In this document: in pieces, positions 14,449 through 59,718 of the stretch
How the letters are laid out: every line of letters begins with the position of its first letter
How positions within the stretch are numbered: position 1 is the stretch's first letter
DNA from: an uncultured bacterium
GTDB taxonomy: Bacteria; Oederibacteriota; Oederibacteriia; Oederibacteriales; Oederibacteriaceae
Assembly: GCA_965112635.1 (NCBI GenBank)
Contig: OZ218778.1
Location: 1,824,001 to 1,888,000, forward strand
Length of the DNA stretch: 64,000 bases
Direction: 5' to 3'
The notes under the pieces: model-generated
What the model saw: only the letters and a program-made list of their open reading frames with translations
Databases searched by the model: none
What the model was told of the DNA's origin: nothing
Translations under genes and position numbers: made by a program

Positions 14449-14487
14449 TCTCTAAACAAAAGTTTGTGTATAGGAGAGGGTTTAAAG

Positions 14488-15951
14488 GTGAGAAAAACTC
14501 TTTTTGTTTTATTGTCCATTTTATTGTTTTATTCAAGTCCGATCAGAGCAGTAGATTTCCAGCCCTATCAGGTTCCTGGCCAGGACATCATTGTTAGGCC
14601 TGAATCCGAGAGACCTTTTAAAAGAGTGGTCATAGGGCTGGAACCCAATAAAACCAGCTATTTTATGCTTCCCAAGACAGACGAGTTTGATGTCAAGGCA
14701 ACCAATGAACAAATTGAATATTTAAGGCGGCAGGTCTACTGGCTGAACTATGAACTGACCCACGGACAAATATTCAGACACATGCCGGATTACACACATT
14801 TTTTTGTAGCTATCCCGGACCCCAAATATGTTCACGAATCCCCTGGGAATGAGCAAGAAGAATTCATTGATTACTTGAAAACCAGGGCTCGATGGAACGA
14901 TAAGAAGATAAAAGACAGGGTTAGTTTTTGTAAAATACCCATGACCCTAGTTTATCCCCAGGATATGGCTGAACCAGTTGGGACTGACAGCAAAGGCCGT
15001 TTGGTTCTTGGAATTGGAATGGATTATGACAGATGGTATTACGAACCTCTGAAAGTTCTTCTGAAATATTTTTCCGATGATTTCCAATTTGTAAAATTAA
15101 ACGGGAAAAATAATGAGGAGATCAATACCGAAGGCGGGGATATTAATTTAACCTGGCTTCCTGAGGGGAAAGTTGGTTTGTTGATCGGCTACCACCGAGT
15201 TCTTCGATATATTCAGCACAAGACCGGAATGGATATGAGGGGACAAAAAGTTGATGCTGCTTTGATCGAAGAGGCACGCAAAGCTTTTCAGGATGCTTTT
15301 TTTGGTGTCGAGGTAATTATCGTGGGGGAGGACCTCCTGCGTAAACCTTTAATTGTGAACGATGAGCTTTTTCATCTGGATATGATCGTTAACCTTGTCA
15401 AATCTGGGGATAAGACCCTGGCATTTATACCTACCTATCTCGTTTCTCCCGTGGATGCGATCACACATGTTCATCTCTCTGATGTGGTACGGGATAGGAT
15501 ACAAAAAGTTTACGACATTTGTGCAGCGCAACTAAAGAAAAGAGGTTTCAAGGTAATCAGACTGCCTTTTGCAGACCATCCGGTCCGCAATCCTGTCAAT
15601 GTAGGAAAGTTTATTAATCCCGAAGATGGCAAACCCTATGTCCTGCTCGGTAAATACCCATATCACTTTGCCCTTTCTGATGGATCCATTCCGCAGTTTG
15701 AACTTCAAGCAGGTTTTGATGCATTAACCTTGATCGTTGACAAGTGGAGACAGGACCCTTCAGGTTCAAATTGGCAGGAAGTACAGAAATATTTCGATGA
15801 AATTTGGAAAATGATGGATGATATTCCTCAAAAAAAGAACCCATTATTTGACAGGCAGGCTGAGATCTATAAGTTGCACGGTATTTCCGTGATAGGTGTC
15901 CCGATTTTCCCGACCGGGGATGGCGGTTTGCATTGTCTTTTATTGAAATAA
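14488..15951 (+). CDS. Secreted pentein-superfamily (guanidino-modifying; PAD/agmatine-deiminase/amidinotransferase-like) protein
   Basis: AGGAG RBS, GTG start and signal peptide (MRKTLFVLLSILLFYSSPIRA). Ordered motifs YPQD, EGGD, FHLD and C-terminal GGLHC match the pentein catalytic Asp / His-x-Asp / Cys layout. Confidence 0.65.
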   Translation: MRKTLFVLLSILLFYSSPIRAVDFQPYQVPGQDIIVRPESERPFKRVVIGLEPNKTSYFMLPKTDEFDVKATNEQIEYLRRQVYWLNYELTHGQIFRHMPDYTHFFVAIPDPKYVHESPGNEQEEFIDYLKTRARWNDKKIKDRVSFCKIPMTLVYPQDMAEPVGTDSKGRLVLGIGMDYDRWYYEPLKVLLKYFSDDFQFVKLNGKNNEEINTEGGDINLTWLPEGKVGLLIGYHRVLRYIQHKTGMDMRGQKVDAALIEEARKAFQDAFFGVEVIIVGEDLLRKPLIVNDELFHLDMIVNLVKSGDKTLAFIPTYLVSPVDAITHVHLSDVVRDRIQKVYDICAAQLKKRGFKVIRLPFADHPVRNPVNVGKFINPEDGKPYVLLGKYPYHFALSDGSIPQFELQAGFDALTLIVDKWRQDPSGSNWQEVQKYFDEIWKMMDDIPQKKNPLFDRQAEIYKLHGISVIGVPIFPTGDGGLHCLLLK

Positions 15952-16235
15952 AAATATAACTTTGTTGCGCTAACGTAACTCTACAGATCCCAACAAACCT
16001 CAAAAATAGAACTATCCAAATATTAAACCTCGGTAATTTGTATAGTAACTCTTTATAAAACAACATAAAAGGTCGCAGCATGTATCCTGTAAACTATCCC
16101 TATAAATGTAATAAAATAGATAGCAAAGAAGGGGATAATGGATATAATAAATGCTAGTGCAATAAAATAATCTAAAAAAACCAACAAAAAAATTAATAAA
16201 TAATTGCGAAATAATTAATTTAAACCGGAGTCACC
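15952..16235 (+). promoter_or_regulatory. Very AT-rich intergenic leader of the giant Thr-rich gene
   Basis: 284-bp non-coding, A-tract-rich stretch ending in GGAG RBS before ATG 16236; exact promoter not resolved. Confidence 0.4.
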
Positions 16236-19200
16236 ATGAGTTTGTGGGGCAGAAGGTTTGACAAAGAAGACAAAATAATATTTTGGATTACATTTTCAAT
16301 ATTATTTTGTCTTTTCTTTTTTTGGCTTGTCTTTTTTATGCCTGGTCCAGAACATGAGATTCCCCAATATGTTTACGCGGCAGGTACAAACACCGCTACT
16401 GCGACCGCAACCAGGACAGCTACGAAAACTGCAACGCAGACAGCTACGAGTACTATAACCAAGACGGCTACGAGCACGGCTACTAATACCGTGACAAACA
16501 CAGCGACAAGTTCAGCGACGCGGACATCGACCCAGACTGCCACTGCAACCGCCACGCAGACCTATTCTCAAACTGCAACCGTTACCAGGACAGCTACGAA
16601 TACGGCAACTAACACTGCTACAAATACAGCTACCCAGACGTCGACTCAAACTGCCACTGCAACCGCCACGCAGACCTATTCTCAAACTGCAACCGTTACC
16701 AGGACAGCTACGAATACGGCAACTAACACTGCTACAAATACAGCTACCCAGACGTCGACTCAAACTGCCACTCCAACCGCCACTCAGACCTATTCTCAAA
16801 CTGCAACCATTACTAGGACGGCTACGAACACGTCTACTAACACCGCTACAAATACAGCCACTAATACTGCAACGAATACTTCCACAAGTTCAGCGACGCG
16901 GACATCGACTCAAACAGCGACAAGTACAGCTACTAATACGATGACAGGCACAGGGTCAGCGACCAATACGGCAACCAATACCGCAACCAACACCGCTACA
17001 AATACAGCGACCCGGACATCGACCCAGACTGCCACTGCAACCGCCACTCAGACCTATTCTCAAACTGCAACCATTACTAGGACGGCTACGAACACGTCTA
17101 CCAACACCGCTACGAATACGGCCACTAATACTGCAACGAATACTTCCACAAGTTCAGCGACGCGGACATCGACTCAAACGGCGACAAGTACAGCTACTAA
17201 TACAGTGACAGGCACAGGGTCAGCGACTAATACATCAACAAGTACCGCAACAAATACGGCGACAAGCACAACAACCAATACGGTGACGAATACTGCAACT
17301 AACACAACCACAAACACTACCACCCAAACAGCTACGCAAACTGCTACGAACACGGTAACTAATTCAGCTACCAACACTGCCACCCAGACAGCGACCAATA
17401 CAGCTTCCCAGACGGCAACGCAAACAGCCACAAACACGGAAACGCAAACGGCTACTCAGACAGCTACTCAGACCGCGACAGCGACAGCAACGGTAACAGG
17501 ATCAGTGACGAATACATCAACGCAAACAACCACAAATACAGCCACGAATACCGCGACCAATACGGAAACCCAGACATTAACCTCGACTATTACTGCCACT
17601 GTTACTTCAACGGTAACGGCAACAAACACGGCCAGTCAAACAGCAACAAACACATCCACAAATACCATGACGAATACGGAGACCCAGACAATAACCTCGA
17701 CTATTACTGCCACTGCTACTTCAACGTTGACTGCAACAAACACAGCCACTCAAACAACAACAAATACAGCCACGAATACTGCATCGAATACGGCGACCAA
17801 TACGGTTACGAATACAACCACAAACACGGCGACCAGCACGGCGACGTATACGGCTACTAGTACGATTACCCTGACCATTACGGCAACAGCAACATCTACG
17901 GCTACAGCAACAAATACCCCCACCAACACCGCGACTAATACTGCAACTAGGACAGCTACGAGTACAATAACCCGGACGGCTACGAGCACGGCTACCGCAA
18001 CAAGTACATCTACTCGGACAGCAACAAATACAGCCACGAATACTGCGACGAATACAGCGACAAGTACGGCGACCAGAACGATTACTTTGACCGCTACGGC
18101 CACAGCTACAAATACTGCAACACGGACAGCTACGAGCACGGCTACCGCAACAAGTACATCTACTCGGACAGCAACACAGACAGCCACCAATACGGTTACG
18201 AATACAGCGACAAATACTGCAACAAGGACTGCTACGAGCACGGCTACCGCAACAAGCACATCTACTCGGACGGCAACCCAGACAGCTACCAATACGGCAA
18301 CCCAGACAGCTACCAATACGGCTACCCAGACAGCAACTCAAACTGCCACTGCAACTGCCACGCAGACCTATTCTCAGACTGCAACCGTTACCAGGACGGC
18401 CTCTAATACGGCTACTAACACTGCGACAAATACAGCTACCCAGACAGCAACTCAAACTGCCACTGCAACTGCCACGCAGACCTATTCTCAAACTGCAACC
18501 GTTACCAGGACGGCCACGAATACGGCTACGAACACTGCTACCAACACAGCCACTAACACGGCCAGCAACACAACTACTCTGACAGCGACTTCAACTGCTA
18601 CTACTACAGCTACAACTACGGTTACGGCCACCAATACGGCCTCTAATACTGCAACTAACACAGCTACAAACACAGCTACAAACACAGCCACCAATACAGC
18701 TACGAACACAGCAACTCAAACTGCCACTGCAACTGCCACGCAGACCTATTCTCAAACTGCAACCGTTACCAGGACGGCCACGAATACGGCTACGAACACT
18801 GCTACCAATACAGTTACTCAGACGGCGACAATTACAGCTACCCAGACAGCAACTCAAACTGCCACTGCAACTGCCACGCAGACCTATTCTCAAACTGCAA
18901 CCGTTACCAGGACGGCCACGAATACGGCTACTAACACTGCTACCAATACAGCTACTCGGACAGCGACCTCAACGGCTACCGTTACAGCCACATCTACGGT
19001 TACAGCCACAAATACCGCCACGAACACAGCCACGGCTACAGCTACGCAGACCTATACTTTGACCAACACCGCTACAGCTACATCCACGAACACAAACACG
19101 CAGACGGCTACCAGCACGGCCACTTACACGCTAACCAGCACCGCTACCGCCACGGCCACGCAGACCTACACGTTGACTAATACAGCTACCGTTACATCCA

Positions 19201-22200
19201 CGAATACGAACACGCAGACGGCTACGAGCACGCAGACCTATACTTTAACTAACACAGCCACCGCCACGGCCACGAACACGAACACGCGGACAGCTACCAG
19301 CACGGCCACTTACACACTAACCAGCACAGCCACGGCTTCGGCTACACAGACCTACACGTTGTCCAACACCGCTACCGCTACAGCCACGAATACGAACACG
19401 CGGACAGCCACGAGCACAGCGACCTGTACGTTGACCAGCACAGCCACCGCCACGGCTACGCAGACCTATACTTTAACTAACACCGCTACCGCCACGGCCA
19501 CGAATACGAATACGCGGACGACTACCAGCACGGGGACCTATACGCTAACCTTCACGGCAACCGCCACGGCTACGCAGACCTATTCTTTGACCAACACAGC
19601 TACCGCTACGGCCACGAATACGAATACACAGACGGCCACGAGCACGGCTACCTATACTTTGACCAGCACCGCCACGGCTACGCAGACTTATTCTTTGACC
19701 AACACAGCTACCGCTACGGCCACGAATACGAATACGCGGACGGCTACCAGCACAGCTACCTATACTTTGACCAGCACAGCTACGGCCACCGCAACGCAGA
19801 CCTATACTTTAACTAACACCGCTACCGCCACGGCCACACAGACCTATTCTTTGACCAACACAGCCACCGCCACGGCCACGAACACGAACACGCGGACAGC
19901 TACCAGCACGGCCACTTACACACTAACCAGCACAGCCACGGCTTCGGCTACACAGACCTACACGTTGTCCAACACCGCTACCGCTACAGCCACGAATACG
20001 AACACGCGGACAGCCACGAGCACAGCGACCTGTACGTTGACCAGCACAGCCACCGCCACGGCTACGCAGACCTATACTTTAACTAACACCGCTACCGCCA
20101 CGGCCACACAGACCTATTCTTTGACCAACACGGCTACCGCTACATTCACGAATACGAACACACAGACCGCTACGAGCACGGCGACCTATACGCTAACCAG
20201 CACAGCCACGGCTACAGCTACGCAGACCTATACTTTGACCAACACCGCTACAGCTACAGCCACGAACACAAACACGCAGACGGCTACCAGCACGGCCACT
20301 TACACGCTAACCAGCACCGCTACCGCCACGGCTACGCAGACCTATACTTTAACTAACACCGCTACCGCCACGGCCACGCAGACCTATACTTTAACTAACA
20401 CCGCTACCGCCACGGCCACGCAGACCTATACTTTAACTAACACCGCTACCGCCACGGCCACACAGACCTATTCTTTGACCAACACGGCTACCGCTACATT
20501 CACGAATACGAATACACAGACCGCTACGAGCACGGCCACTTATACGCTAACCAGCACTGCTACCGCCACGGCTACGCAGACCTATTCTTTGACCAATACA
20601 GCTACTGTCACGAATACAAATACGCGAACGGCTACGAGCACAGCTACCTATACTTTGACCAGCACAGCTACGGCCACCGCAACGCAGACCTATACCTTGA
20701 CCAACACCGCTACAGCTACGACTACGAACACGAACACGCAGACGGCTACGAGTACGGCCACTTATACGCTAACCAGCACAGCCACGACCACCGCTACGCA
20801 GACCTATTCTTTGTCCAACACCGCTACCGCTACAGCCACGAATACGAACACGCGGACAGCCACAAGCACAGCGACCTGTACGTTGACCAGCACAGCCACC
20901 GCCACGGCCACGCAGACCTATACTTTAACTAACACCGCTACCGCCACGGCCACACAGACCTATTCTTTGACCAATACAGCTACTGTCACGAATACAAATA
21001 CGCGAACGGCTACGAGCACAGCTACCTATACTTTGACCAGCACAGCTACGGCCACCGCAACGCAGACCTATACCTTGACCAACACCGCTACAGCTACGAC
21101 TACGAACACGAACACGCAGACGGCTACGAGTACGGCCACTTATACGCTAACCTCCACGGCCACAGCTACGCAGACCTACACCTTGACCAGTACCGTTACT
21201 GCCACGGCCACGAATACGAATACGCAGACAGCTACGAGCACGGCCACCTATACGCTAACCAGTACAGCAACCGCTACGATCACGAATACGAACACGCGGA
21301 CGGCTACCAGCACGGCGACCTATACGCTAACCAGCACTGCTACCGCCACGGCTACGCAGACCTATTCTTTGACCAATACAGCTACTGTCACGAATACAAA
21401 TACGCGAACGGCTACCAGCACAGCTACCTATACTTTGACCAGCACAGCTACCGCCACGGCCACACAGACCTATTCTTTGACCAACACGGCTACCGCTACA
21501 TTCACGAATACGAATACACAGACCGCTACGAGCACGGCGACCTATACGCTAACCAGCACAGCCACGGCTACAGCTACGCAGACCTATACTTTGACCAACA
21601 CCGCTACAGCTACGGCCACGAACACAAACACGCAGACGGCTACGAGCACGCAGACCTATACGCTAACCAGCACAGCCACGGCTACAGCTACGCAGACCTA
21701 TACTTTGACCAACACCGCTACAGCTACATCCACGAACACAAACACGCAGACGGCTACCAGCACGGCCACTTACACGCTAACCAGCACCGCTACCGCCACG
21801 GCCACGCAGACCTACACGTTGACTAATACAGCTACCGTTACATCCACGAATACGAACACCCAGACCGCTACCGCCACGGCCACACAGACCTATTCTTTGA
21901 CCAACACAGCTACAGCTACGGCCACGAACACAAACACGCGGACAGCTACCAGCACGGCCACTTACACGCTAACCAGCACCGCTACCGCCACGGCCACGCA
22001 GACCTATACTTTAACTAACACCGCTACAGCTACGGTTACGAATACAAACACGCGGACGGCCACAAGCACGGCTACCTATACTTTGACCAGCACCGCTACA
22101 GCTACGAATACGGCCACGAACACGGCTACCAATACGGCTACTAGCACAGCTACAAATACGGCCACCCAGACGGCGACCTCAACCGCTACCGCCACAGCTA

Positions 22201-25200
22201 CATCTACGGTTACCGCCACCAATACGGCCACCAGCACTACTACCAGCACAGCAACTAATACGACTACCAACACAGCTACTAATACAGCCACCCAGACCGC
22301 TACCGCCACGGCCACACGGACCTATTCTTTGACCAACACAGCTACGAACACAGCTACACCAACGCTGACCTCAACTACTACCGCAACAGCTACATCTACG
22401 GTTACAGCGACCAATACGACAACGAATACTGCAACAAATACGGCTACGAACACAACTACTCAGACAGCGACCTCAACTACTACTGCCACAGCTACATCCA
22501 CGATTACAGCGACCAGCACGGCTACTAATACGGCCACTAACACAGCAACCAATACTGGGACAAATACTGCCACGAATACTGTTACCCAGACGATGACCGC
22601 AACTATTACTGTCACAGCTACATCTACAGCTTCAGCCACCAATTCGGCTACGAACACAGCTACTAACACGGCGACTAATACGGCCACGAACACGGCTACA
22701 AATACTGCCACGAATACAGCCACCCAGACGGCGACCTCAACTGCTACCGCCACAGCTACATCTACGGTTACCGCCACCAATACGGCCACCAGCACTACTA
22801 CCAGCACAGCAACTAATACGACTACCAACACAGCTACTAATACAGCCACCCAGACCGCTACCGCCACGGCCACACAGACCTATTCTTTGACTAACACAGC
22901 TACCGCTACATCCACGAACACAAACACGCAGACGGCCACAAGCACGGCCACTTACACGCTAACCAGCACAGCTACGGCCACCGCTACGCAGACCTATACT
23001 TTGACCAGCACCGCTACAGCTACGGTTACGAATACAAACACGCGGACGGCCACAAGCACGGCTACCAATACGGCTACTAGCACAGCTACAAATACGGCCA
23101 CCAACACAGCTACGAACACAGCTACACCAACGCTGACCTCAACTACTACCGCAACAGCTACATCTACGGTTACAGCGACCAATACGACAACGAATACTGC
23201 AACAAATACGGCTACGAACACAACTACTCAGACAGCGACCTCAACTACTACTGCCACAGCTACATCCACGATTACAGCGACCAGCACGGCTACTAATACG
23301 GCCACTAACACAGCAACCAATACTGGGACAAATACTGCCACGAATACTGTTACCCAGACGATGACCGCAACTATTACTGTCACAGCTACATCTACAGCTT
23401 CAGCCACCAATTCGGCTACGAACACAGCTACTAACACGGCGACTAATACGGCCACGAACACGGCTACAAATACTGCCACGAATACAGCCACCCAGACGGC
23501 GACCTCAACTGCTACCGCCACAGCTACATCTACGGTTACCGCCACCAATACGGCCACCAGCACTACTACCAGCACAGCAACTAATACGACTACCAACACA
23601 GCTACTAATACAGCCACCCAGACCGCTACCGCCACGGCCACACAGACCTATTCTTTGACCAACACAGCTACAGCTACGGTTACGAATACAAACACGCGGA
23701 CGGCCACAAGCACGGCTACCAATACGGCTACTAGCACAGCTACAAATACGGCCACCAACACAGCTACGAACACAGCTACACCAACGCTGACCTCAACTAC
23801 TACCGCCACAGCTACATCTACGGTTACAGCGACCAATACTTCTACGAATACAGCTACTAATACGCCCACCAATACAGCTACTTGGACTGCGACCCCAACC
23901 GCCACTGCCACATCAACATCTACAGTTACAGACACCAGTACAGCTACTTATACTGGGACAAATACGGCTACGAACACCACTACCAATACGGCCACTAACA
24001 CGGCAACCAACACAGCGACGAATACAGCTACAAGTACGGCAACCAGCACGAGTACCACGACAAATACGGTAACGAATACAGTTACTAACACAGCCACAAA
24101 TACGGTTACTTGGACAATGACTAATACGGCTACCAACACAGCTACAAATACAGCCACCCAGACGGCGACCTCAACTGCTACCGCCACAGCTACATCTACG
24201 GTTACAGCGACCAATACGACAACGAATACTGCAACAAATACCGCAACGAACACAACTACTCAGACAGCGACCTCAACTACTACTGCCACAGCTACATCCA
24301 CGATTACAGCGACCAGCACGGCTACTAATACGGCCACTAAAACAGCAACCAATACTGGGACAAATACTGCCACGAATACTGTTACCCAGACGATGACCGC
24401 AACTATTACTGTCACAGCTACATCTACGGTTACCGCAACCAATACGGCCACAAACACAGCTACGAATACGGCTTCTCAGACAACAACAGCAACAACTACT
24501 ACTACAGCTACCAATACAGCTACTAATACGTCCACCAATACTGCTACTTGGACTGCGACCCTAACTGCCACTGCCACGTTAACATCTACAGTTACGGCCA
24601 CCAGTACAGCTACTTATACTGGGACAAATACGGCTACGAACACCGCTACCAATACAGCTACTTGGACAGCAACTAATACGGCCACCAACACAGCTACGAA
24701 CACAAATACTCAGACAGCGACCTCAACTGCTACTGCCACGGCTACGTCTACTAATACAGTAACCAATACGACAACCAATACGGCCACAAATACTGCAACA
24801 AATACATCCACGATTACAGCTACCCAGACGGCAACAACAACTGCTACTGCCACTGCTACATCTACGGTTACAGCTACCAATACAGCTACTGATACGACAA
24901 CGAATACGGCCACAAATACGACTACGAACACCACTACCAATACGGTTACTAACACGGCAACAAATACAGCGACGAATACGGCTACCAGTACGGCAACCAG
25001 TACGAGTACCACTACGAACACAGCCACGAACACAGCCACTAATACTGCGACAAATACAGGCACAAATACTGCTACCCAGACGATGACATCAACTGTTACT
25101 GCCACAGCTACATCTACTGCTACAACTACCAATACGGCGACCAGCACGGCAACTAATACAGCTACGAATACAGCTTCTCAGACAGCAACCGCAACCCCTA

Positions 25201-28200
25201 CCGCCACAGCTACGGCTTCTAATACAACAACCAATACTGCAACAAATACTGTCACTACCACGACTACCAACACGGCCACTACTACAGTTACCAATACGGC
25301 TACAAATACCACTACAGATACGGCAACTAATACGACTACCAGCACAGCTACAAACACAGCAACTCAGACTTCTACGAACACCACTACCAGCACAGCTACA
25401 AATACGGTTACAAATACGGCTACTTCTACAATAACCAACACAGCTTCGAGTACCGCTACAAACACAACAACTAATACGATTACCAATACTGCTACAAACA
25501 CAGCGACTCAGACTGTGACGAACACGGCTACCATTACAGCTACAAGCACGACTACAAACACAGCTACGAACACGGCAACTAGCACTGCGACAAATACAGC
25601 GACGAATACAGCTACAAGTACTGCAACAAGTACGAGTTCCGCTACCAATACAGCTACCAACACTGCTACAAATACCGTCACTAATACTGCTACGAACACG
25701 GCAACCAATACTGCGACAAATACAACGACGATTACAGCTACCCAGACGGCGACCTTAACTACTACTACCACAGCTACATCTACGGTTACGGCAACCAACA
25801 CGGCTTCTAATACAACAACAAATACTGCTACCAGCACGGCCACTAATACGGCAACAAATACTGCTACAAATACTGCCACGAATACTGCTACACAGACGGC
25901 GAGCTCAACTGTTACTGCCACAGCGACAGCTACATTGACAGCGACCAACACAACCACAAACACGACTTCCAATACAACTACGAACTCAGACACTCCAACA
26001 GCTACGAACACCGCTACCATTACAGTTACCAGTACGGCCACTAATACTATGACTAATACATCAACTAGTACTGGCACGAATACCAATACAACAACCCAAA
26101 CAACCACGAACACAACAACAAATACGGCTACTTGGACGGCGACTATTACTCCTACTAATACCACCACGAACACAGCTACAAACACGACTACAAACACAAC
26201 CACGAACACAGCAACTAACACTGCGACAATTACTTCAACTACTACCACTACCAATACTGCCACCAATACGGTTACTAACACTGCAAGCAATACTGCTACA
26301 AATACAGCGACGATTACTGCTACCCAGACGGCGACCTCAACTGCTACCGCCACAGCTACATCTACGGTTACAGCGACCATCACAACTACTAACACGACTA
26401 CGAATACCGCTACGAACACGACCACTAATACAGCTACCAATACAGCGACCAATACGGCTACGAATACCGCCACGAATACAACAACTAATACGACTACCAA
26501 TACAGCTTCAAACACGGCAACCCAGACGGCTACGAACACCGCTACTATTACCTCTACAAACACGACTACAAACACAGCCACCAACACGGAAACTAACACT
26601 GTGACTATTACTTCAACTACTACCGCTACCAATACTGCCACCAACACCGCGACGAGTACTGCAACTAATACAGCTACAAACACGACCACGGGAACCGTAA
26701 CAAATACTGCAACCAACACAGCGACTCAGACGGCTACGAGCACCACTACAAATACAGCTACCAATACGGCCACCAATACTGTGACCAATACATCAACTAG
26801 TACAGGTACGAATACCGATACGGCAACCCAAACAACTACGAATACAACAACAAATACGGCGACTTGGACGGCGACTAATACTCCTACTAATACCATCACG
26901 AACACTTCCACTAACACGACTACAAATACCACAACAAATACTGCAACTAATACGGTAACGAACACAAATACGATCACGAATACAGCGACCCAGACGATTA
27001 CCAATACTGTGACCAGTACAACAACAAGCACCACGACTTATACAACAACGAACACGAGCACCAGCACTAACACGGCGACTCAAACCGCAACGAATACAAC
27101 TACAAGCACTGTTACAAATACAAGCACCCAAACAGCGACAAATACGACTACTCAGACCGCCACTCAAACAGCAACTCAGACAGAGACAGTTACTGCAACC
27201 GACACGGCAACTCAAACTGCCACCCAGACAATCACTCAGACAGCGTCAAGTACGGAGACCGTCACGAATACCACCACAGCAACCAGCACGACTACGACAA
27301 CCAATACAACTACTGCAACTTGTTCGTCTACCTTGACCGCAACTCCTACAGTGACCAGCACGTTGACAACGACCTTTACGGGGACAAGTTCAGCAACTCA
27401 AACGGCGACTGCAACTAGTACAAATACGAATACGAATACTGCAACAGGCACTACGACCAATACGGAAACTAATACAGCTACTCAGACTGCTTCGAGTACC
27501 GTGACAACAACTGGCACGCCGACGAATACGGTTACCTCGACAGCCACTATTTCCCTTACATTCACAAATACAGTGACTCAAACCACAACAGCTACGGCTA
27601 CTTTGACGGTTACGACTACTACTACAAGTACAATTACAAATACTGCCACCACCACCAATACGGAGACATCGACATCTACCAGCACGACCACTGGTTCGGA
27701 GACTGCTACAAGTTCCGCGACAACGACGCCCACTAATACTGGTACCTCAACCACTACCGCAACGGAAACGATTACCGCTACTATAACTTGTACATTTACC
27801 GAAACTTACACGGAAACTAGCACATCAACTAATACAGCTACTCCTACAAATACCTGCACTGTAACTGTGACTACAACTTCAACTGAAACTATGACTTCCA
27901 CCTGTTCTTACACTGCCACTTTGACAGATACAGTGACTTTAACTTGGACTGAAACAGCAACTTGTACTGAGACGGCAACCTGGACTGAAACAAGTTCACC
28001 AACAGCAACTGCCACGATCACGCTGACCCCAACCTCGACTCAGACAGGGACCCAAACGGCGACTCAGACTGATACGCAATCTGCAACCTCTACGGGCACC
28101 CCAACAAGCACTAACACAGTTTCGAATACAGTGACCCAGACAAGTACCAGCACTTTAACTTCAACGTTGTCATCTACCGGAACGACCACATCAACTGGGA

Positions 28201-29780
28201 CAATAACGAGCACGGGAACAATGACTATGACAGCGACTAATACAGGTACAGTGACGTTGAGTTCTACCTCAACCAATACCCCCACTCCAACTCCAACAAG
28301 TAGTGCCACCAATACGATTACGCTGACTTATACTCAAACTAAGACTGGCACCGTCACCACTACAGCAACACAAACAGCAACGGTGACCACGACAGGCACC
28401 ATCACCCTTACCTTTACACAAACGGCTACATCTACGATGACCGCCACGACGACCATGACAGCAACGATCACCCTGACCAGTACTATTACTTTGACTTTTA
28501 CGCAGACGGCAACAGCTACTAACACGGCAACGATCACTCTGACTTTCACGAGCACCAATTCTGCTACAAACACTGATACAGCATCTAGGACGAGCACCGC
28601 CACCATGACAGCGACTATTACTCTGACCCCAACTATCACCCAGACACCTACAACAACTACTACATATTCTTTGACCCTAACTCCGAGTTTAACCTTTACT
28701 TATTTGCCTTCTTCTACCCAAACCATGACAAGCACCATTAGCCCAACTTCATCCAAAACACCAACAATCACTTTGACATTTACCCAATCCTTAACAACGA
28801 CTAATACCGGTACCGTGACGGTTACCATGACCATCACTACTACCGGGACCATAACGGCTACCTCCACTTCAACACAAACTTATTCGAGGACGGCGACTAT
28901 CACCCTCACTGCCACAATTTCCAATACGCCCTCTCAAACCCTAACGCTTACAATTACAACCACCTCGTCCCTCACGCCTACTTCGACTAACACCAGTACA
29001 GCAACAAGGACTGCGACAGTTACCGCGACGAGCATTGGAACCTCTACCCAAACATGGACCTTAACCACCACTCTGACCCTAACCTATACTCCCACTACCA
29101 CTATGACCATTACGCTCACCACGACCCCTACGACGACTCCAACGCCCTCACTTACCCTAACCAGCACCTATTCAGTCACGTCTTCCCAAACCTTCACTGC
29201 TAGCACGACCTTCACGATCACTCCCACCCCTGGACCTTCTACTCTAACGGTCCAGGTTTTGGATGCGTTTGATGAACTGAGGTTGTCTGGGGCCACGGTT
29301 TCTATCACAGGGCCTTCAGGAACGCTAACTGGCAGTACGGATGGACGGGGGAATGTTACCTTTAACGGACTAGTCTTTGGGTCATATACCGTAAGTGCTT
29401 CAATGACCGGCTATAATGGATCTTCAGGGAATGCTGTGCTAGCTCAACTAAATAATAGTTTGTTGATACGGCTCTACACGCAGTACAAGTCCAGTGTCCC
29501 TTATCTGACCAAGAACATAATCAACCCACTGAAAAATGAGAGCCTTGAGATCGGATGTCTGCTTACTCAGAAAGAGCACGTTTTGATCAAGATATTTACC
29601 CTTTCTGGCGGGGCAGAGATCATCACTCTTGTTGATCAGGACATTAGTCAGGGTCGCTATGCTGTAGAATGGTTCGGCAAAACCATTAATGGTGACACTG
29701 TGGGCAATGGGATTTATATAGTCTTTATTCAACTCGGGACTGACAGGTTCATCAAGAAAGTCGCTGTAGTTAAGCAATAA
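16236..29780 (+). CDS. Giant 4514-aa Thr-Xaa repeat surface protein: N-terminal hydrophobic signal/anchor, one carboxypeptidase-regulatory-like domain, C-terminal FlgD-Ig/T9SS-like CTD
   Basis: Uninterrupted 13.5-kb ORF with GGAG RBS. Hydrophobic IIFWITFSILFCLFFFWLVFF then VYA-A. Thr/Ser at nearly every second residue from ~aa 51 to ~4330. LSGATVSI...TDGRGNVTFNGLVFGSYTVSASMTGY; ends YLTKNIINP...IKIFTLSG...EWFGK...GNGIYIV...KKVAVVKQ. Confidence 0.9.
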   Translation: MSLWGRRFDKEDKIIFWITFSILFCLFFFWLVFFMPGPEHEIPQYVYAAGTNTATATATRTATKTATQTATSTITKTATSTATNTVTNTATSSATRTSTQTATATATQTYSQTATVTRTATNTATNTATNTATQTSTQTATATATQTYSQTATVTRTATNTATNTATNTATQTSTQTATPTATQTYSQTATITRTATNTSTNTATNTATNTATNTSTSSATRTSTQTATSTATNTMTGTGSATNTATNTATNTATNTATRTSTQTATATATQTYSQTATITRTATNTSTNTATNTATNTATNTSTSSATRTSTQTATSTATNTVTGTGSATNTSTSTATNTATSTTTNTVTNTATNTTTNTTTQTATQTATNTVTNSATNTATQTATNTASQTATQTATNTETQTATQTATQTATATATVTGSVTNTSTQTTTNTATNTATNTETQTLTSTITATVTSTVTATNTASQTATNTSTNTMTNTETQTITSTITATATSTLTATNTATQTTTNTATNTASNTATNTVTNTTTNTATSTATYTATSTITLTITATATSTATATNTPTNTATNTATRTATSTITRTATSTATATSTSTRTATNTATNTATNTATSTATRTITLTATATATNTATRTATSTATATSTSTRTATQTATNTVTNTATNTATRTATSTATATSTSTRTATQTATNTATQTATNTATQTATQTATATATQTYSQTATVTRTASNTATNTATNTATQTATQTATATATQTYSQTATVTRTATNTATNTATNTATNTASNTTTLTATSTATTTATTTVTATNTASNTATNTATNTATNTATNTATNTATQTATATATQTYSQTATVTRTATNTATNTATNTVTQTATITATQTATQTATATATQTYSQTATVTRTATNTATNTATNTATRTATSTATVTATSTVTATNTATNTATATATQTYTLTNTATATSTNTNTQTATSTATYTLTSTATATATQTYTLTNTATVTSTNTNTQTATSTQTYTLTNTATATATNTNTRTATSTATYTLTSTATASATQTYTLSNTATATATNTNTRTATSTATCTLTSTATATATQTYTLTNTATATATNTNTRTTTSTGTYTLTFTATATATQTYSLTNTATATATNTNTQTATSTATYTLTSTATATQTYSLTNTATATATNTNTRTATSTATYTLTSTATATATQTYTLTNTATATATQTYSLTNTATATATNTNTRTATSTATYTLTSTATASATQTYTLSNTATATATNTNTRTATSTATCTLTSTATATATQTYTLTNTATATATQTYSLTNTATATFTNTNTQTATSTATYTLTSTATATATQTYTLTNTATATATNTNTQTATSTATYTLTSTATATATQTYTLTNTATATATQTYTLTNTATATATQTYTLTNTATATATQTYSLTNTATATFTNTNTQTATSTATYTLTSTATATATQTYSLTNTATVTNTNTRTATSTATYTLTSTATATATQTYTLTNTATATTTNTNTQTATSTATYTLTSTATTTATQTYSLSNTATATATNTNTRTATSTATCTLTSTATATATQTYTLTNTATATATQTYSLTNTATVTNTNTRTATSTATYTLTSTATATATQTYTLTNTATATTTNTNTQTATSTATYTLTSTATATQTYTLTSTVTATATNTNTQTATSTATYTLTSTATATITNTNTRTATSTATYTLTSTATATATQTYSLTNTATVTNTNTRTATSTATYTLTSTATATATQTYSLTNTATATFTNTNTQTATSTATYTLTSTATATATQTYTLTNTATATATNTNTQTATSTQTYTLTSTATATATQTYTLTNTATATSTNTNTQTATSTATYTLTSTATATATQTYTLTNTATVTSTNTNTQTATATATQTYSLTNTATATATNTNTRTATSTATYTLTSTATATATQTYTLTNTATATVTNTNTRTATSTATYTLTSTATATNTATNTATNTATSTATNTATQTATSTATATATSTVTATNTATSTTTSTATNTTTNTATNTATQTATATATRTYSLTNTATNTATPTLTSTTTATATSTVTATNTTTNTATNTATNTTTQTATSTTTATATSTITATSTATNTATNTATNTGTNTATNTVTQTMTATITVTATSTASATNSATNTATNTATNTATNTATNTATNTATQTATSTATATATSTVTATNTATSTTTSTATNTTTNTATNTATQTATATATQTYSLTNTATATSTNTNTQTATSTATYTLTSTATATATQTYTLTSTATATVTNTNTRTATSTATNTATSTATNTATNTATNTATPTLTSTTTATATSTVTATNTTTNTATNTATNTTTQTATSTTTATATSTITATSTATNTATNTATNTGTNTATNTVTQTMTATITVTATSTASATNSATNTATNTATNTATNTATNTATNTATQTATSTATATATSTVTATNTATSTTTSTATNTTTNTATNTATQTATATATQTYSLTNTATATVTNTNTRTATSTATNTATSTATNTATNTATNTATPTLTSTTTATATSTVTATNTSTNTATNTPTNTATWTATPTATATSTSTVTDTSTATYTGTNTATNTTTNTATNTATNTATNTATSTATSTSTTTNTVTNTVTNTATNTVTWTMTNTATNTATNTATQTATSTATATATSTVTATNTTTNTATNTATNTTTQTATSTTTATATSTITATSTATNTATKTATNTGTNTATNTVTQTMTATITVTATSTVTATNTATNTATNTASQTTTATTTTTATNTATNTSTNTATWTATLTATATLTSTVTATSTATYTGTNTATNTATNTATWTATNTATNTATNTNTQTATSTATATATSTNTVTNTTTNTATNTATNTSTITATQTATTTATATATSTVTATNTATDTTTNTATNTTTNTTTNTVTNTATNTATNTATSTATSTSTTTNTATNTATNTATNTGTNTATQTMTSTVTATATSTATTTNTATSTATNTATNTASQTATATPTATATASNTTTNTATNTVTTTTTNTATTTVTNTATNTTTDTATNTTTSTATNTATQTSTNTTTSTATNTVTNTATSTITNTASSTATNTTTNTITNTATNTATQTVTNTATITATSTTTNTATNTATSTATNTATNTATSTATSTSSATNTATNTATNTVTNTATNTATNTATNTTTITATQTATLTTTTTATSTVTATNTASNTTTNTATSTATNTATNTATNTATNTATQTASSTVTATATATLTATNTTTNTTSNTTTNSDTPTATNTATITVTSTATNTMTNTSTSTGTNTNTTTQTTTNTTTNTATWTATITPTNTTTNTATNTTTNTTTNTATNTATITSTTTTTNTATNTVTNTASNTATNTATITATQTATSTATATATSTVTATITTTNTTTNTATNTTTNTATNTATNTATNTATNTTTNTTTNTASNTATQTATNTATITSTNTTTNTATNTETNTVTITSTTTATNTATNTATSTATNTATNTTTGTVTNTATNTATQTATSTTTNTATNTATNTVTNTSTSTGTNTDTATQTTTNTTTNTATWTATNTPTNTITNTSTNTTTNTTTNTATNTVTNTNTITNTATQTITNTVTSTTTSTTTYTTTNTSTSTNTATQTATNTTTSTVTNTSTQTATNTTTQTATQTATQTETVTATDTATQTATQTITQTASSTETVTNTTTATSTTTTTNTTTATCSSTLTATPTVTSTLTTTFTGTSSATQTATATSTNTNTNTATGTTTNTETNTATQTASSTVTTTGTPTNTVTSTATISLTFTNTVTQTTTATATLTVTTTTTSTITNTATTTNTETSTSTSTTTGSETATSSATTTPTNTGTSTTTATETITATITCTFTETYTETSTSTNTATPTNTCTVTVTTTSTETMTSTCSYTATLTDTVTLTWTETATCTETATWTETSSPTATATITLTPTSTQTGTQTATQTDTQSATSTGTPTSTNTVSNTVTQTSTSTLTSTLSSTGTTTSTGTITSTGTMTMTATNTGTVTLSSTSTNTPTPTPTSSATNTITLTYTQTKTGTVTTTATQTATVTTTGTITLTFTQTATSTMTATTTMTATITLTSTITLTFTQTATATNTATITLTFTSTNSATNTDTASRTSTATMTATITLTPTITQTPTTTTTYSLTLTPSLTFTYLPSSTQTMTSTISPTSSKTPTITLTFTQSLTTTNTGTVTVTMTITTTGTITATSTSTQTYSRTATITLTATISNTPSQTLTLTITTTSSLTPTSTNTSTATRTATVTATSIGTSTQTWTLTTTLTLTYTPTTTMTITLTTTPTTTPTPSLTLTSTYSVTSSQTFTASTTFTITPTPGPSTLTVQVLDAFDELRLSGATVSITGPSGTLTGSTDGRGNVTFNGLVFGSYTVSASMTGYNGSSGNAVLAQLNNSLLIRLYTQYKSSVPYLTKNIINPLKNESLEIGCLLTQKEHVLIKIFTLSGGAEIITLVDQDISQGRYAVEWFGKTINGDTVGNGIYIVFIQLGTDRFIKKVAVVKQ
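19261..20106 (+). repeat. Intragenic direct repeat, ~240 bp at ~19261-19500 and ~19867-20106 (offset 606 bp)
   Basis: Both copies read ccgccacggccacgaacacgaacacgcggacagctaccagcacggccacttacacactaaccagcacagccacggcttcggctacacag... and both contain the rare TCTL codons. Confidence 0.8.
22333..23659 (+). repeat. Intragenic near-perfect direct repeat, ~560 bp at 22333-22891 and 23101-23659 (offset 768 bp); partial third copy ~24181-24427
   Basis: Identical antisense ORF translations at 22460-22873 and 23228-23641; DNA ends compared by eye. Confidence 0.85.
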
Positions 29781-29836
29781 ATACACATGATTTTCGGTTG
29801 TTTTATCTGGGAGGAACAGTTGAAAGGCTGGCTTAA

Positions 29837-30232
29837 ATGAACTGGAAAAAGGTTGTTCTTTGTATTTTTATTACCCTTTTCTCCTTATGGGGCAATCTTG
29901 CATTCAGCCAAGGCATTCCATGGCTGGACCAAGATGGGTTGTTTCTGGGCCATAACAAGATCAATCCGCTGAATCATGAGTCTGTATCTGTTGTCTATCA
30001 TTTGGCGCAGGACACCCATGTGGTCATAAAAATTTATGATCTTTCCGGCCAGAAACTTATCAGGACATTAGTGGACGGGAATTTTGGAGGGAGTTGGTCA
30101 TACCAAGTTTTTTGGGATGGCACCAGTAGAAGTGGAGATGTTGTTGGAAATGGTATTTACGTCATTCAGTTAGTAACCAAAAGTGTAAATATACTCAAAT
30201 TCATTGCCGTGGTTAAAACCACAGGCAGTTAA
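29837..30232 (+). CDS. Small secreted protein consisting only of a FlgD-Ig/T9SS-like CTD
   Basis: Signal peptide (MNWKKVVLCIFITLFSLWGNLAFS) then LFLGHNKINP...IKIYDLSGQKLIRTLVD...FWDGTSRSGDVVGNGIYVI...KFIAVVK. Confidence 0.8.
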   Translation: MNWKKVVLCIFITLFSLWGNLAFSQGIPWLDQDGLFLGHNKINPLNHESVSVVYHLAQDTHVVIKIYDLSGQKLIRTLVDGNFGGSWSYQVFWDGTSRSGDVVGNGIYVIQLVTKSVNILKFIAVVKTTGS

Positions 30233-30238
30233 AGGGGG

Positions 30239-31891
30239 GTGGGTAGGGTGCAAATCTTTATGGTTGGTTTGGTCATTCTGTTGATGTGGGCGCCCAATGT
30301 TTTTGGCACGGCTTTTGGAACCACGGGCCAAAATTTTCTAACCATTGGCGTTGGTGCAAGGCCGACGGCGATGGGAGGGGCTTTCGTCGGTCTAGCTGAC
30401 GACCCTGATGCGATCCACTGGAACCCAGCTGGTTTGATTAATCTTGAAGACTATGAAATTTCCCTGATGCATAGCGCTCTCATCGGAGACGTCAGCTATG
30501 ATACCGTTTCCTACGCCCAGCCCATAGCTGTTGATTATGGTTATATTGGAGCCGGCATTGCCTATTTAGGTGTCCCCCCGTTTGATAATACCGTTGGTCG
30601 CGAAAACTCGATCTCTGCCCATAATTTCCTGTTAGACATTGCCTATGCGAATCGATTGAGCGATATGTTTGATATAGGCAATCCAATCGGCCGGCGTTTA
30701 AGTTTGGGACTAGGTATAAAATGGATCAATTTTTCGATCGATAACTTGGTGAGTTATAATGACGTGGCCTTCGATGTTGGCACCTATTTCATCACTCCCT
30801 GGGAACCGTTAACTCTGGGCGCGAGTTTGCAAAATTTAGGTATTTCTCTGGACCCTGCCGCTGTTTCAGACCCACTGCCTTTGACCTTTAGATGCGGAGC
30901 GTGTGTCCACATTGCAGACCTATCTATGCAGCTTGACCTGATCCAGCAAGTGGATAATGACGCCGTGATAGGATGGGGAACAGAATATAATTTCCAGGAT
31001 TTATTGTTCCTAAGGGGTGGTTATGCGATTGGCGGGCCTTCTCTAAACGGGTTGTCCGGGATAACATGCGGTGCCGGATGGAGGATGAGGTCCTTTGAGT
31101 TTGATTATACCTTTGTACCTATGGGGGAGTTGGGCGCCACCCACCGTTTTTCTCTTAACGTTTCCTTTGAACAGGAGCTCAAAGAATTACGTAAGAATCT
31201 GGCCGTGGAATCCAAAGACAAGGTCCAAAAAGATGAAATCATTGCTTTATATAAGAAGGGCAATGAATTCTATTATCAGGGGAACTACACTCAAGCTTTG
31301 GATGCCTGGCAGCAGATCCTGATCGTGGACCCGAAAAATCAAAAAGCGCAGGAAAGAATCACTTTTACCACGAACCTTTTGAACAAGAAGTTCACGGAAA
31401 ACGAAGCAACGCAGTATTATGAACAGGGAATGAGTGATTATTCGGCTGGTGACTACGAAAAGGCTTTGGAACAATGGGCTAGTGTCCAAAAGATAGTTCC
31501 CGATTACTTGAATATAAAGGAGATGATAAGTAAGGCAGAGGCGAAGTTGGCTGAAAAGAGAGTCGACAGGGCTGGAGTGGGTCCTTTGCTTGAAGCTGCT
31601 CGTACTTCCTATAAACAAGGGCAACTGCTGGATGCCGTCAAAGATTGGAGAAAAGTTTTAGAAGCAAATCCTCAAAATCAGGAAGCCCTGAAGTCGTTAA
31701 AGGATGCTAATGCGGAGATTTTAAACTTGGCAAAGAAAACCTATGATAAGGGGTTAGAATTTTACACCAATGGGGATTACGATAATGCCATTGCCACCTG
31801 GAAAAATGTGGTAATACTTCAGCCTGATCACCCAACCGTATTGGGTGATATTGAGAGAGCCCAGAAAGAGGTAAATTCGTTGAAAAAATAA
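30239..31891 (+). CDS. PorV/UPF0164 (FadL-like) outer-membrane barrel fused to C-terminal TPR repeats
   Basis: FLTIGVGARPTAMGGAFVGLADDPDAIHWNPAGL signature; DVG...LGASLQNLG; FLRGGY...FDYTFVPMGELGATHRFSL; then about four TPRs (YxxGxY..A...W..(I/V)L..xP). Confidence 0.85.
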   Translation: MGRVQIFMVGLVILLMWAPNVFGTAFGTTGQNFLTIGVGARPTAMGGAFVGLADDPDAIHWNPAGLINLEDYEISLMHSALIGDVSYDTVSYAQPIAVDYGYIGAGIAYLGVPPFDNTVGRENSISAHNFLLDIAYANRLSDMFDIGNPIGRRLSLGLGIKWINFSIDNLVSYNDVAFDVGTYFITPWEPLTLGASLQNLGISLDPAAVSDPLPLTFRCGACVHIADLSMQLDLIQQVDNDAVIGWGTEYNFQDLLFLRGGYAIGGPSLNGLSGITCGAGWRMRSFEFDYTFVPMGELGATHRFSLNVSFEQELKELRKNLAVESKDKVQKDEIIALYKKGNEFYYQGNYTQALDAWQQILIVDPKNQKAQERITFTTNLLNKKFTENEATQYYEQGMSDYSAGDYEKALEQWASVQKIVPDYLNIKEMISKAEAKLAEKRVDRAGVGPLLEAARTSYKQGQLLDAVKDWRKVLEANPQNQEALKSLKDANAEILNLAKKTYDKGLEFYTNGDYDNAIATWKNVVILQPDHPTVLGDIERAQKEVNSLKK

Positions 31892-59589: not shown

Positions 59590-59718
59590 GCTTTTTCCCT
59601 TTCCGTAACTTGATAATCGATCCCTAACTCTCTATACTTTAACAGAAAACTATTGTAATCTCATTTGCAGGCACGAACAATACCTGAAGAAAAACCATTG
59701 GTAAAAAAGAAGAAAACC

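Follow-up and report, generated by a model that had tools for sequence, protein, structure and literature searches.

A head-less 4,514-residue threonine-x protein beside a PorV-family barrel gene in an uncultured Oederibacteriota bacterium: a possible glycosylated surface tether

Serine-rich-repeat proteins (SRRPs) of Gram-positive bacteria, 970 to more than 5,000 aa long, carry a glycosylated repeat region (SRR2) that acts as an extended stalk, and they become insoluble when the core glycosyltransferases are mutated (excerpts of PMC7661464). The serine-aspartate repeat (SDR) proteins of staphylococci are O-glycosylated by SdgA and SdgB (excerpts of PMC3794999). In type IX secretion systems (T9SS), PorV is the shuttle for type-A C-terminal domains (CTDs) (excerpts of PMC5562754), and the type-B cargos of Flavobacterium are genetically linked to cognate PorP/SprF-like shuttles, with SprB binding SprF (excerpts of PMC12618676 and PMC9143113). 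Here we describe a gene of an uncultured peat bacterium of the Oederibacteriota (assembly GCA_965112635.1) that occupies positions 16236-29780 (plus strand) of a 64,000-nt stretch of contig OZ218778.1 (1,824,001 to 1,888,000). This stretch is called the window below; coordinates refer to it, or to the whole contig where they are prefixed C1. The product of the gene, hereafter the giant, is a protein in which threonine takes almost every second position over more than 4,000 residues. Our preferred reading, which we hold tentatively, is that it forms a surface-anchored, probably O-glycosylated tether or brush of micron scale, by analogy with the serine-rich-repeat stalks. These Gram-positive Ser-x dipeptide-repeat stalks are its closest analogues and had been overlooked in the initial annotation of this DNA.

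The 13.5-kb frame is open in one phase and, as first annotated, encodes 4,514 aa, a total length taken from the single-contig assembly alone. Its first 50 residues are followed by one (Thr/Ser-x) tract of 2,141 dipeptides (aa 51-4332; 16386..29231, plus strand) with a single parity and four vocabulary zones. At the parity positions we count 2,054 Thr, 85 Ser, one Leu and one Ile, that is, a hydroxyl residue at 2,139 of 2,141 sites (99.9%), with Thr over Ser at about 24:1. The autocorrelation of Thr over aa 51-4330, a check proposed with the initial annotation, is -0.81 at lag 1 and +0.82 at lag 2 and keeps the same strength to lag 12. In each 100-aa bin of aa 101-4300, one parity has Thr at 41-50 of its 50 positions and the other at 0-8, and a two-state Viterbi scan finds no phase slip. 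The whole protein is 48.4% T, 16.0% A, 9.5% N, 7.5% S, 3.6% Q, 0.9% P and 1.2% G. A zoned vocabulary with little Pro, Gly or charge before the distal part had been described, and it is what we find: up to aa 3550 each 500-aa zone holds 0-3 Pro and 0-5 Gly, both increasing thereafter, there are 50 charged residues within aa 51-3550 with a net charge near zero, and the tract is Y/L-rich at aa 1051-2050, N-rich at aa 2551-3550, and raised in E/C/G/P/I/L from aa 3551. Fully extended at 0.34 nm per residue, its 4,282 residues would reach 1.46 micrometres, close to the ~1.4 micrometres estimated before.

The regularity of the tract is at the protein level and not at the DNA level. All four Thr codons are used across its whole length, synonymous variation is saturated, and the 85 parity Ser codons comprise 76 TCN and nine AGY. 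From ACN, a single transition would give Ala or Ile/Met, yet Ala never occurs at a parity site and Ile/Met occurs once; the parity hydroxyl is therefore under strong purifying selection. Such a strict requirement for Thr or Ser would be most simply explained by O-glycosylation.

Tracts of this kind are common in the genome, which is a single contig of 2,876,006 bp with 51.3% GC. Thr-x tracts of 30 aa or more are present in 56 open reading frames (ORFs), of which 53 terminate in a CTD; it was detected at the C-terminal end in 51 by a hidden Markov model (HMM) derived from this genome's CTDs and in the two giants (the second is described below) by BLASTP. Conversely, 51 of the 80 CTD ORFs contain a Thr-x tract, and the gap between tract and CTD is 5-13 aa in 31 of these 51. 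Tract lengths run from 38 to 910 aa and then leap to 4,162 and 4,282 aa. Among 19 sampled cargo ORFs, seven have a binding or enzyme head (FG-GAP in two, Malectin, DUF11 with bMG10, DUF7948 with SBBP, CBM30, and a GDSL-like match below its cut-off), two have FlgD_ig alone and ten are without a Pfam match at 1e-6. Because this head-tract-CTD plan recurs across the CTD ORFs, including the first ORF of the window, the Thr-x tract is the usual spacer of the lineage, separating a displayed head from a C-terminal domain for sorting or anchoring. O-glycosylated linkers lie between a functional domain and an anchor; the ordinary tracts and the second giant have this layout, and the head-less giant of the window does not. 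The repeat itself had been proposed as the functional part of the protein. It is not something unique to this protein, since a CTD ends 53 of the 56 tract ORFs here and tracts are present in 21 of 31 phylum genomes.

Several other long ORFs were seen alongside. Window positions 1-5004 are the 3' part of a 3,740-aa ORF (C1:1817782-1829004) in which IPT-like repeats are combined with a Thr-x tract of 560 aa, FN3-like segments, an Ig-like domain and a CTD; it has PorU/PorZ C-terminus matches at 8.8e-12 and 5.3e-9, and its PorV-like gene (C1:1816941-1817765) lies directly upstream and not downstream. An 8,344-aa ORF (C1:29359-54393, minus strand), which is not among the ORFs listed for tracts of 30 aa or more, has an N-terminal part like these IPT-like repeats, a CTD, and a PorV-like gene 363 bp downstream. 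The window also encodes an 888-aa DUF11 protein with a 186-aa Thr-x tract and a CTD.

To follow the tracts through the phylum, we scanned 31 genomes, this one included, with the pattern (ACNNNN)x19+ACN, for which the backwards control gives 0-13 matches per genome. The pattern is present in 21 (20 of 30 relatives) and missing from four families (10 genomes). In five tract-rich relatives, the tract-bearing ORFs reach about 3,100-3,660 aa among the 150 of 263 listed. Eight long ORFs of relatives, some of them cut by region edges, are all built of head, tract and tail, with several hundred to about 1,500 residues before the first long tract and longest tracts of 1,629 and 1,426 aa; the CTD HMM matches the C-terminus in six of the eight. 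In a large collection, 60 proteins of 2,482-7,900 aa were scored and 56 had at least one tract of at least 16 aa, the longest contiguous tract being 916 aa and the largest total 1,494 aa. Named carriers there were Goldbacteria, Chloracidobacterium, Chloroflexi and FCPU426. For a housekeeping protein of the genome studied here, the closest relative with a name comes from a MAG of "candidate division FCPU426" and is only 54% identical. The FCPU426 16S cluster has been equated with the candidate phylum Goldbacteria (excerpts of PMC7031533); threonine and linkers go unmentioned in the excerpts of that paper, the other FCPU426 papers found are surveys, and our literature search found no paper on alternating-Thr tracts in bacteria. 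The giant is the hypertrophied, head-less and Pro-depleted extreme of the Thr-x spacer in this FCPU426/Goldbacteria-like lineage.

Of special interest is the second giant, a protein of 6,061 aa encoded outside the window (C1:2639993-2658178, minus strand). It has a head of about 1,270 aa, after which come one tract (aa 1275-5436), an inserted domain, another tract (aa 5626-5879) and an Ig-like domain with a CTD, and a PorV-TPR barrel of 580 aa follows it. The head gives a sub-threshold DUF1349 match (23.1 bits vs 32.4) and no PDB sequence match. The Ig-like and CTD ends of the two giants are 31% identical over 190 aa, and their tracts share no 30-mer and have a DNA identity of about 62%, which is the composition baseline. 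Pro occupies 1.6% of the x positions in the window's giant and 1.1% in the second, against 12.7% overall in the ordinary tracts (5.8-29% in each of 54 ORFs) and 8.7-43% in sampled tracts of relatives; Ala and Asn together make up 53% and 69% of the x positions in the two giants. In the giants' tracts, the Thr codons (ACA/ACC/ACG/ACT) have shares of.25/.26/.35/.14; the 54 ordinary tracts have.15/.46/.23/.17 and the background has.11/.54/.22/.14. The genome has tRNA-Thr genes UGU, GGU and CGU, a single copy each, and the giants' Thr codons are spread over all three. This use of codons is an argument for translation of the giants and for a selection peculiar to them, either for isoacceptor load sharing or for DNA de-homogenisation. 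Ordinary tracts show seven parity slips in 9,515 aa, a rate that predicts about three per giant; none is seen in either (P ~0.04 each), which is no more than suggestive. By their Pro depletion, Ala+Asn enrichment and re-balanced Thr codons, the two giants are a distinct subclass and not merely long spacers.

After the tract, the giant has an Ig-like domain and a CTD and nothing else, and we find no enzyme or adhesin head, as had been noted at first. The Ig-like domain (aa 4336-4401; 29241..29438, plus strand) is a prealbumin-like CarboxypepD_reg (Pfam PF13620, 7e-9, 36.4 bits with a cut-off of 32.3), a domain that also precedes the CTD of the second giant. The last ~97 aa (aa 4418-4514; 29487..29780 with the stop, plus strand) resemble a T9SS type-A CTD. 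By BLASTP they match the extreme C-termini of nine ORFs of the genome, and an alignment with the CTDs of nine proteins has N105, P109, G136, W157, G159, V167, G170 and Y172 invariant. By this homology, we assign the tail to the T9SS type-A CTDs. The best of the nine matches (43% identity, 3e-15) is an ORF of 131 aa (29837..30232, plus strand) that starts 56 bp after the giant, is the closest paralogue of its CTD, and consists of a signal peptide and a CTD only (TIGR04183 Por_Secre_tail 25.7 bits with a cut-off of 23; CTD HMM 1.4e-15). CTD-only mini-proteins of this kind, a signal peptide plus a CTD in ORFs of 80-174 aa with CTD-HMM matches, are seen at several places in the genome; PorA is a small CTD-only regulatory protein in Porphyromonas (excerpts of PMC7712824 and PMC12152298).

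Six bp beyond the 131-aa ORF begins the gene of a 550-aa protein (30239..31891, plus strand) that combines a PorV/PorQ-family barrel (aa ~1-310) with TPR repeats (NF033709, 161.5 bits with a cut-off of 90, model positions 1-326). No terminator-like site was found between the giant, the 131-aa ORF and this gene, the scan being at or below shuffle expectation. Homologues of the barrel are annotated "PorV/PorQ family protein", and a barrel profile built from 45 homologues matches the solved PorV 6h3i_F at 3.7e-37. The barrel is probably a shuttle or an anchor for the CTD proteins upstream. A secreted, surface-type protein had been proposed from the start; the hydrophobic signal or anchor at the N-terminus, the CTD and the adjacent PorV-family barrel agree with this, and a surface filament or glyco-brush is the best-supported reading.

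This arrangement is not limited to the giant. PorV-family matches number 37 in the genome, with 31 above the cut-off, and for 25 of the 35 PorV-like genes used, a CTD ORF ends at most 1,500 bp upstream on the same strand, mostly at 66-240 bp. Two such cargo-barrel cassettes lie in the window, at 29837-31891 and at 59665-60885 followed by 60774-61865. The barrels beside the two giants are mutual best paralogues (30% identity over 545 aa, 259 bits; next best 170). Over the 25 pairs, CTD similarity and barrel similarity are correlated (Mantel Spearman r=0.20, reached by 37 of 5,000 permutations), and nearest neighbours agree in 7 of 25. As far as sequences go, this co-variation shows cargo-barrel modules that are inherited together, and it says nothing on binding. 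In a complex prediction, the pairing of the giant's CTD with the barrel domain received a score of 0.86, and the best of three controls had 0.01; in the calibration, 58 of 80 solved complexes attained that mark, as did 2 of 110 mismatched pairs. Three docking runs, in which own alignments were used, had at least 97% of contacts in common and a partner predicted local distance difference test score (pLDDT) of at least 87. Because PorV structures have been solved (seven entries), such a pass indicates likeness to a known kind of complex and not binding of this pair. The PorV family is found in all 31 genomes of the phylum, with 10-55 matches each, and is not discriminating, because the 10 Thr-x-negative genomes have it too. 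GldL/GldM (PorL/PorM; TIGR03513, TIGR03517) gave no match in the genome, nor in 14 control genomes, so that this search has no positive control. Compared with the Bacteroidota, in which a single PorV is shared by all type-A CTDs and type-B cargos have linked, cognate PorP/SprF-like partners, this is a hybrid arrangement, seemingly of type-A-like CTDs that have dedicated barrels. In the literature search, we found no paper on PorV or T9SS in Goldbacteria or Elusimicrobia and did not meet the CTD-barrel pattern.

On the 5' side, an in-frame TAA stands four codons before the giant's ATG, so that no head is concealed there. A Shine-Dalgarno-like GGAG (16227..16230, plus strand) lies 5 nt 5' of the ATG, where an AT-rich intergenic gap of 284 bp ends; promoter-like matches in this gap are not above their frequency in shuffled sequence. 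The N-terminal 50 aa (16236..16385, plus strand) begin with a basic n-region, continue with a hydrophobic stretch of 22 residues and close with a short polar segment. Their hydrophobicity (2.7 over 15 aa) is within the range shown by signal peptides on the other CTD proteins of this genome; the hydrophobic core is longer than in those, and the nearest small-residue site is about 14 residues beyond it. The N-terminus may be a Sec signal peptide, or it may be a signal anchor that is not cleaved.

Directly upstream of the giant lies a 495-aa ORF (14464-15951) with a signal-peptide-like N-terminus, without a Pfam or NCBIfam match and without a paralogue in the genome. We considered whether it and the giant are one split gene, which is unlikely given its own signal-like N-terminus, the 284-bp gap and the in-frame stop before the ATG. 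Antisense ORFs inside the tract (17721-29786, minus strand; 100-403 aa, for example 25508-26719) were rejected as mechanical by-products of the ACN-NNN repeat. Elsewhere in the window are GH42-like and GH123-like ORFs, a SpoIIE-phosphatase/HATPase sensor fusion and, 19 kb downstream of the giant, the sole SecA gene of the genome (48409-51057).

As for the capacity to glycosylate, the genome is well supplied with periplasm-facing GT-C enzymes: it has 26 PMT_2 matches, and two of the ORFs are also over the cut-off of the PMT (protein O-mannosyltransferase) model (22.7), with 30.0 and 27.2 bits (C1:899041-901185 and C1:1007242-1009377). Seven of nine PMT_2 ORFs examined are PMT_2-PA14 fusions, that is, GT-C proteins with 9-16 transmembrane-like segments and a C-terminal PA14 glycan-binding domain. 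GT-C/PA14 loci are seen at C1:2622190-2628329, 1112191-1118064, 1144321-1147254 and 2169850-2176780, and two such ORFs lie 2.6-8 kb from the gene cluster of the second giant. The ORF at C1:1007242-1009377 (PMT_2 with YkcB_C) has a small CTD ORF (C1:1006734-1007108) ending about 130 bp before its start and, 1.9 kb before it, a Thr-x ORF without a CTD (C1:1003833-1005383), and is a candidate for an enzyme that modifies the tracts.

Taken as a glycosylated tether, the giant would be made as follows. Its N-terminal hydrophobic segment would carry the chain over the inner membrane by Sec export, and the PorV-like barrel encoded beside it, together with an SprA-like translocon, would then recognise the Ig-like domain and CTD. 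As PorU sortase was not found, the CTD would probably stay docked on the barrel as an anchor. The hydroxyls of the 2,141 Thr/Ser positions would be O-glycosylated in the periplasm, with the PMT-like GT-C transferases as candidates, and the glycans would keep the Pro-free chain soluble and extended. The product would be a hydrophilic filament of up to ~1-1.5 micrometres and, with the second giant, which has a near-equal tract and carries heads, it could build a brush or tether layer around the cell.

Several observations weigh against this reading. The tail of the giant stays under the curated CTD cut-offs (FlgD_ig 4.4e-4, 20.6 bits vs 27; PorZ C-terminus 0.002) and the genome-derived CTD HMM misses it, for which reasons we call its CTD a divergent subfamily. 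PorU (NF033707) matched at 19 places of the genome, covering only model positions 984-1095, which are the model's CTD, and none was over the cut-off. SprA (TIGR04189) gave five colinear partial matches in one ORF of 1,851 aa, the best at 104.5 bits against a cut-off of 200. No transferase gene is found in the giant's operon, and the PMT-like enzymes are without a tract-specific tie; PMT_2 occurs in 31 of 31 phylum genomes (3-47 each) and is not discriminating, because the 10 Thr-x-negative relatives have it too. The 22-residue N-terminal stretch could be an uncleaved anchor, which would misfit a free outer-surface filament, and a head-less tether has no obvious ligand. Finally, the Pro-poor, Ala/Asn-rich x positions of the giants are unlike those of ordinary spacers and their composition favours β-sheet, and a single-sequence AlphaFold model of aa 1101-1400 consists of β-hairpin meanders and not of coil (pLDDT 63.1; predicted template-modelling score, pTM, 0.69).

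These last points lead to the main rival, a structural β-sheet polymer, an unlikely explanation that nevertheless deserves serious attention. Here the Pro-free (Thr-Ala/Asn/Ser)n chain would be a silk-, amyloid- or solenoid-like ribbon in a fibre or sheath, and not a flexible glyco-tether, with the x residues (Ala, Asn, Ser, Gln, some Tyr and Leu) packed inside or between sheets and the Thr faces exposed. The strict two-residue period is that of a β-strand, Pro depletion and Ala+Asn enrichment are found in both giants independently, their tracts have no 30-mer in common, and the register is unbroken over 4,282 and 4,162 aa where about three slips each are expected. The AlphaFold strands, 14-16 residues long and in hairpins, have a pLDDT of 70-80 in their blocks. 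However, the confidence is low and inconsistent over the five models (pLDDT 55, 55, 45 and 27 in the other four), and alternating low-complexity sequence invites spurious strands; a single-sequence model of aa 4101-4514 was unusable (pLDDT 39.1). Foldseek against the PDB with the model of aa 1101-1400 gave eight rows, none at E<=0.001. The turn formers Gly, Pro and Asp are nearly missing before aa 3550, and the repeat periods (14-126 aa, see below) define no single coil length. The tract also sits where Pro-rich spacers sit, before the Ig-like domain and CTD, and Pro-rich spacers cannot be sheets. Moreover, exporting 4,000 aa of an aggregation-prone sheet former through the periplasm would be hazardous. 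In a bolder form, which we consider quite unlikely, the two giants would be no spacers but a new bacterial structural polymer: two Pro-free (Thr-Ala/Asn)n chains, expanded independently to nearly equal lengths, would build a Thr-faced β-ribbon or a layer of defined height around the cell, in which the head-less chain is the matrix and the headed one displays lectin-like domains at the outer edge, each on its cognate PorV-like barrel. If true, this would be a domain-free, silk-like or water-ordering envelope with no described counterpart in bacteria.

Very unlikely, in our view, is a runaway expansion of the repeat that has little if any function in itself, whether a head-less cargo derivative enlarged by slippage or unequal crossing-over, or a length inflated by the assembly. 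Tandem Repeats Finder reports 42 rows in the gene, with periods of 42-378 nt (14-126 aa), 64-93% identity and no dominant coil length, and 32% of 30-mers recur within it. All periods are multiples of 6 nt, so that the register has been preserved through expansion. The giant has no head. The sole identical entry among 1.84 billion cluster representatives is a 114-aa fragment, and a HMMER search of these representatives with the 192-aa tail gave 3,369 matches, mostly CarboxypepD_reg repeat proteins, and no informative orthologue. With the same tail query, 20 of 30 relatives have matches at 1e-8 (25-45% identity, in ORFs of 230-2,604 aa), none of which is an orthologous giant. A search of the ESM Atlas stayed under the useful level (best score 0.85, recognition 686), and a PDB sequence search with 300 aa of the tract gave only one weak match (8zvk_A, 2e-4). 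Because short-read assemblies break such genes, as the 114-aa fragment illustrates, their frequency in soil and peat is probably underestimated.

Against such an expansion stand the 13.5-kb open frame, with its hydroxyl at 99.9% of parity sites despite saturated synonymous variation, the Thr codon re-balancing in common with an unrelated second giant, and a signal, a CTD, a Shine-Dalgarno-like motif and a downstream barrel gene that are all intact. The gene has no exact repeat of 800 nt or more and 0.9% of its 500-mers are duplicated, so that long reads would resolve it, and the genome is a single 2.88-Mb contig. We also looked for the gene in peat metagenomes. Five runs matched, and the four examined, from four studies, yielded short contigs (150-581 bp, depth 2-5), of whose 70 records 66 match the gene at 99% identity or more, with nine single-letter differences listed. 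They cover 24, 12, 15 and 10 of 30 bins of the gene in the respective runs; no contig spans the tract, and uncovered bins are uninformative. The local sequence of the gene thus recurs across independent peat samples. Three joints within the tract (a skip of 5,332, a step back of 2,478 and a skip of 1,068), each in one contig with sides of 21-76 nt, may be length variants or artefacts, and we do not trust them.

The initial annotation had also offered an ice- or mineral-templating β-solenoid, and ice binding, ice nucleation or mineral templating by Thr hydroxyl and methyl groups arrayed on a flat β face is unsupported and the least probable of the explanations: Thr exceeds Ser by about 24:1, near-identical gene pieces come from peat metagenomes of four studies, TxT repeats are discussed as an ice-binding surface (excerpts of PMC12091574 and PMC11803617) and the top Foldseek row is a bacterial ice-binding protein (5uyt_B), but that row is far off significance (E=2.5, TM 0.10), the alternation is continuous with irregular periods of 14-126 aa and no single coil length, the motif is used as a spacer between domains in 50-odd proteins whose heads are unrelated, which points to a generic physical role and not to lattice matching, and no cold-adaptation context was found.

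We therefore return to the glycosylated tether and compare the giant with the systems that it resembles. Like the SRRPs (Fap1, GspB, PsrP, Srr1/2), it has a hydroxy-amino-acid repeat of thousands of residues and a C-terminal surface anchor, and SRR regions are Ala-rich and Pro-poor, as are the tracts of the giants. It differs in having Thr in place of Ser, a diderm host, one tract that runs without interruption and has no ligand-binding region amid its repeats, and a T9SS-type CTD with a PorV-like barrel in place of sortase. The giant contains no LP.TG motif of the LPXTG type. SecA2 was not found, with one SecA_DEAD match in the whole genome (SecY2, GtfB and Asp1-3 were not searched), and GtfA (TIGR02918) gave at most 37 bits against a cut-off of 574.6, with generic matches also in all 14 control genomes. 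Because of the single SecA and the lack of GtfA and of an LPXTG motif, the likeness to SRRPs is one of functional analogy and not of family membership.

The SDR proteins share with the giant a strict dipeptide alternation with a hydroxy residue at every second position; theirs separates the ligand-binding domain from the wall anchor. The SD repeat spans a few hundred residues and is acidic, whereas the giant has Ala, Asn, Ser and Gln at x, a near-zero net charge, 4,282 tract residues and no head. SprB-SprF-type pairs of the T9SS are similar in that a giant surface protein with a C-terminal sorting domain has its partner barrel immediately 3'. Here, in contrast, the CTD is type-A-like, the linked barrels are PorV/PorQ and not PorP, and there are about 31 of them rather than one. 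SprB is also built from folded repeats and not from a dipeptide tract. Pro/Thr-rich O-glycosylated linkers (PT boxes) of secreted carbohydrate-active enzymes are Thr-rich, low-complexity spacers between folded modules. The ordinary Thr-x tracts, with 12.7% Pro at x, and those of relatives, with 13-43%, resemble them; the giant, unlike PT boxes, has 1.6% Pro, a strict two-residue register throughout and a length 10-100 times theirs, and it joins no catalytic or binding module.

Insect and bacterial TxT proteins carry one short TxT per coil of constant length. TxT ice-binding and ice-nucleating β-solenoids resemble the tract in placing alternate Thr on β-strands as flat Thr arrays (excerpts of PMC12091574 and PMC11803617). 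The giant differs from them by its continuous alternation, its irregular units and a low-confidence AlphaFold hairpin meander that is not a solenoid. In silk fibroin-type (Gly-x)n chains, thousands of residues have one type at every second position and form sheets with two distinct faces; the giant has Thr for Gly, is a bacterial surface protein with a sorting domain, and gives no sign of fibre formation here. As a head-less protein, it is a clean natural object in which a Thr-x chain of about 4,000 residues may be studied as a glycan brush, a tether or a β-fibre. The CTD-barrel pattern (about 31 barrels, 25 of 35 directly after a CTD cargo, and no PorU found) extends the type-A/type-B logic of the T9SS. 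If our reading holds, long hydroxy-amino-acid dipeptide stalks would not be a Gram-positive speciality, and an uncultured diderm phylum would have reached a threonine version of them by a T9SS-like CTD/PorV route.

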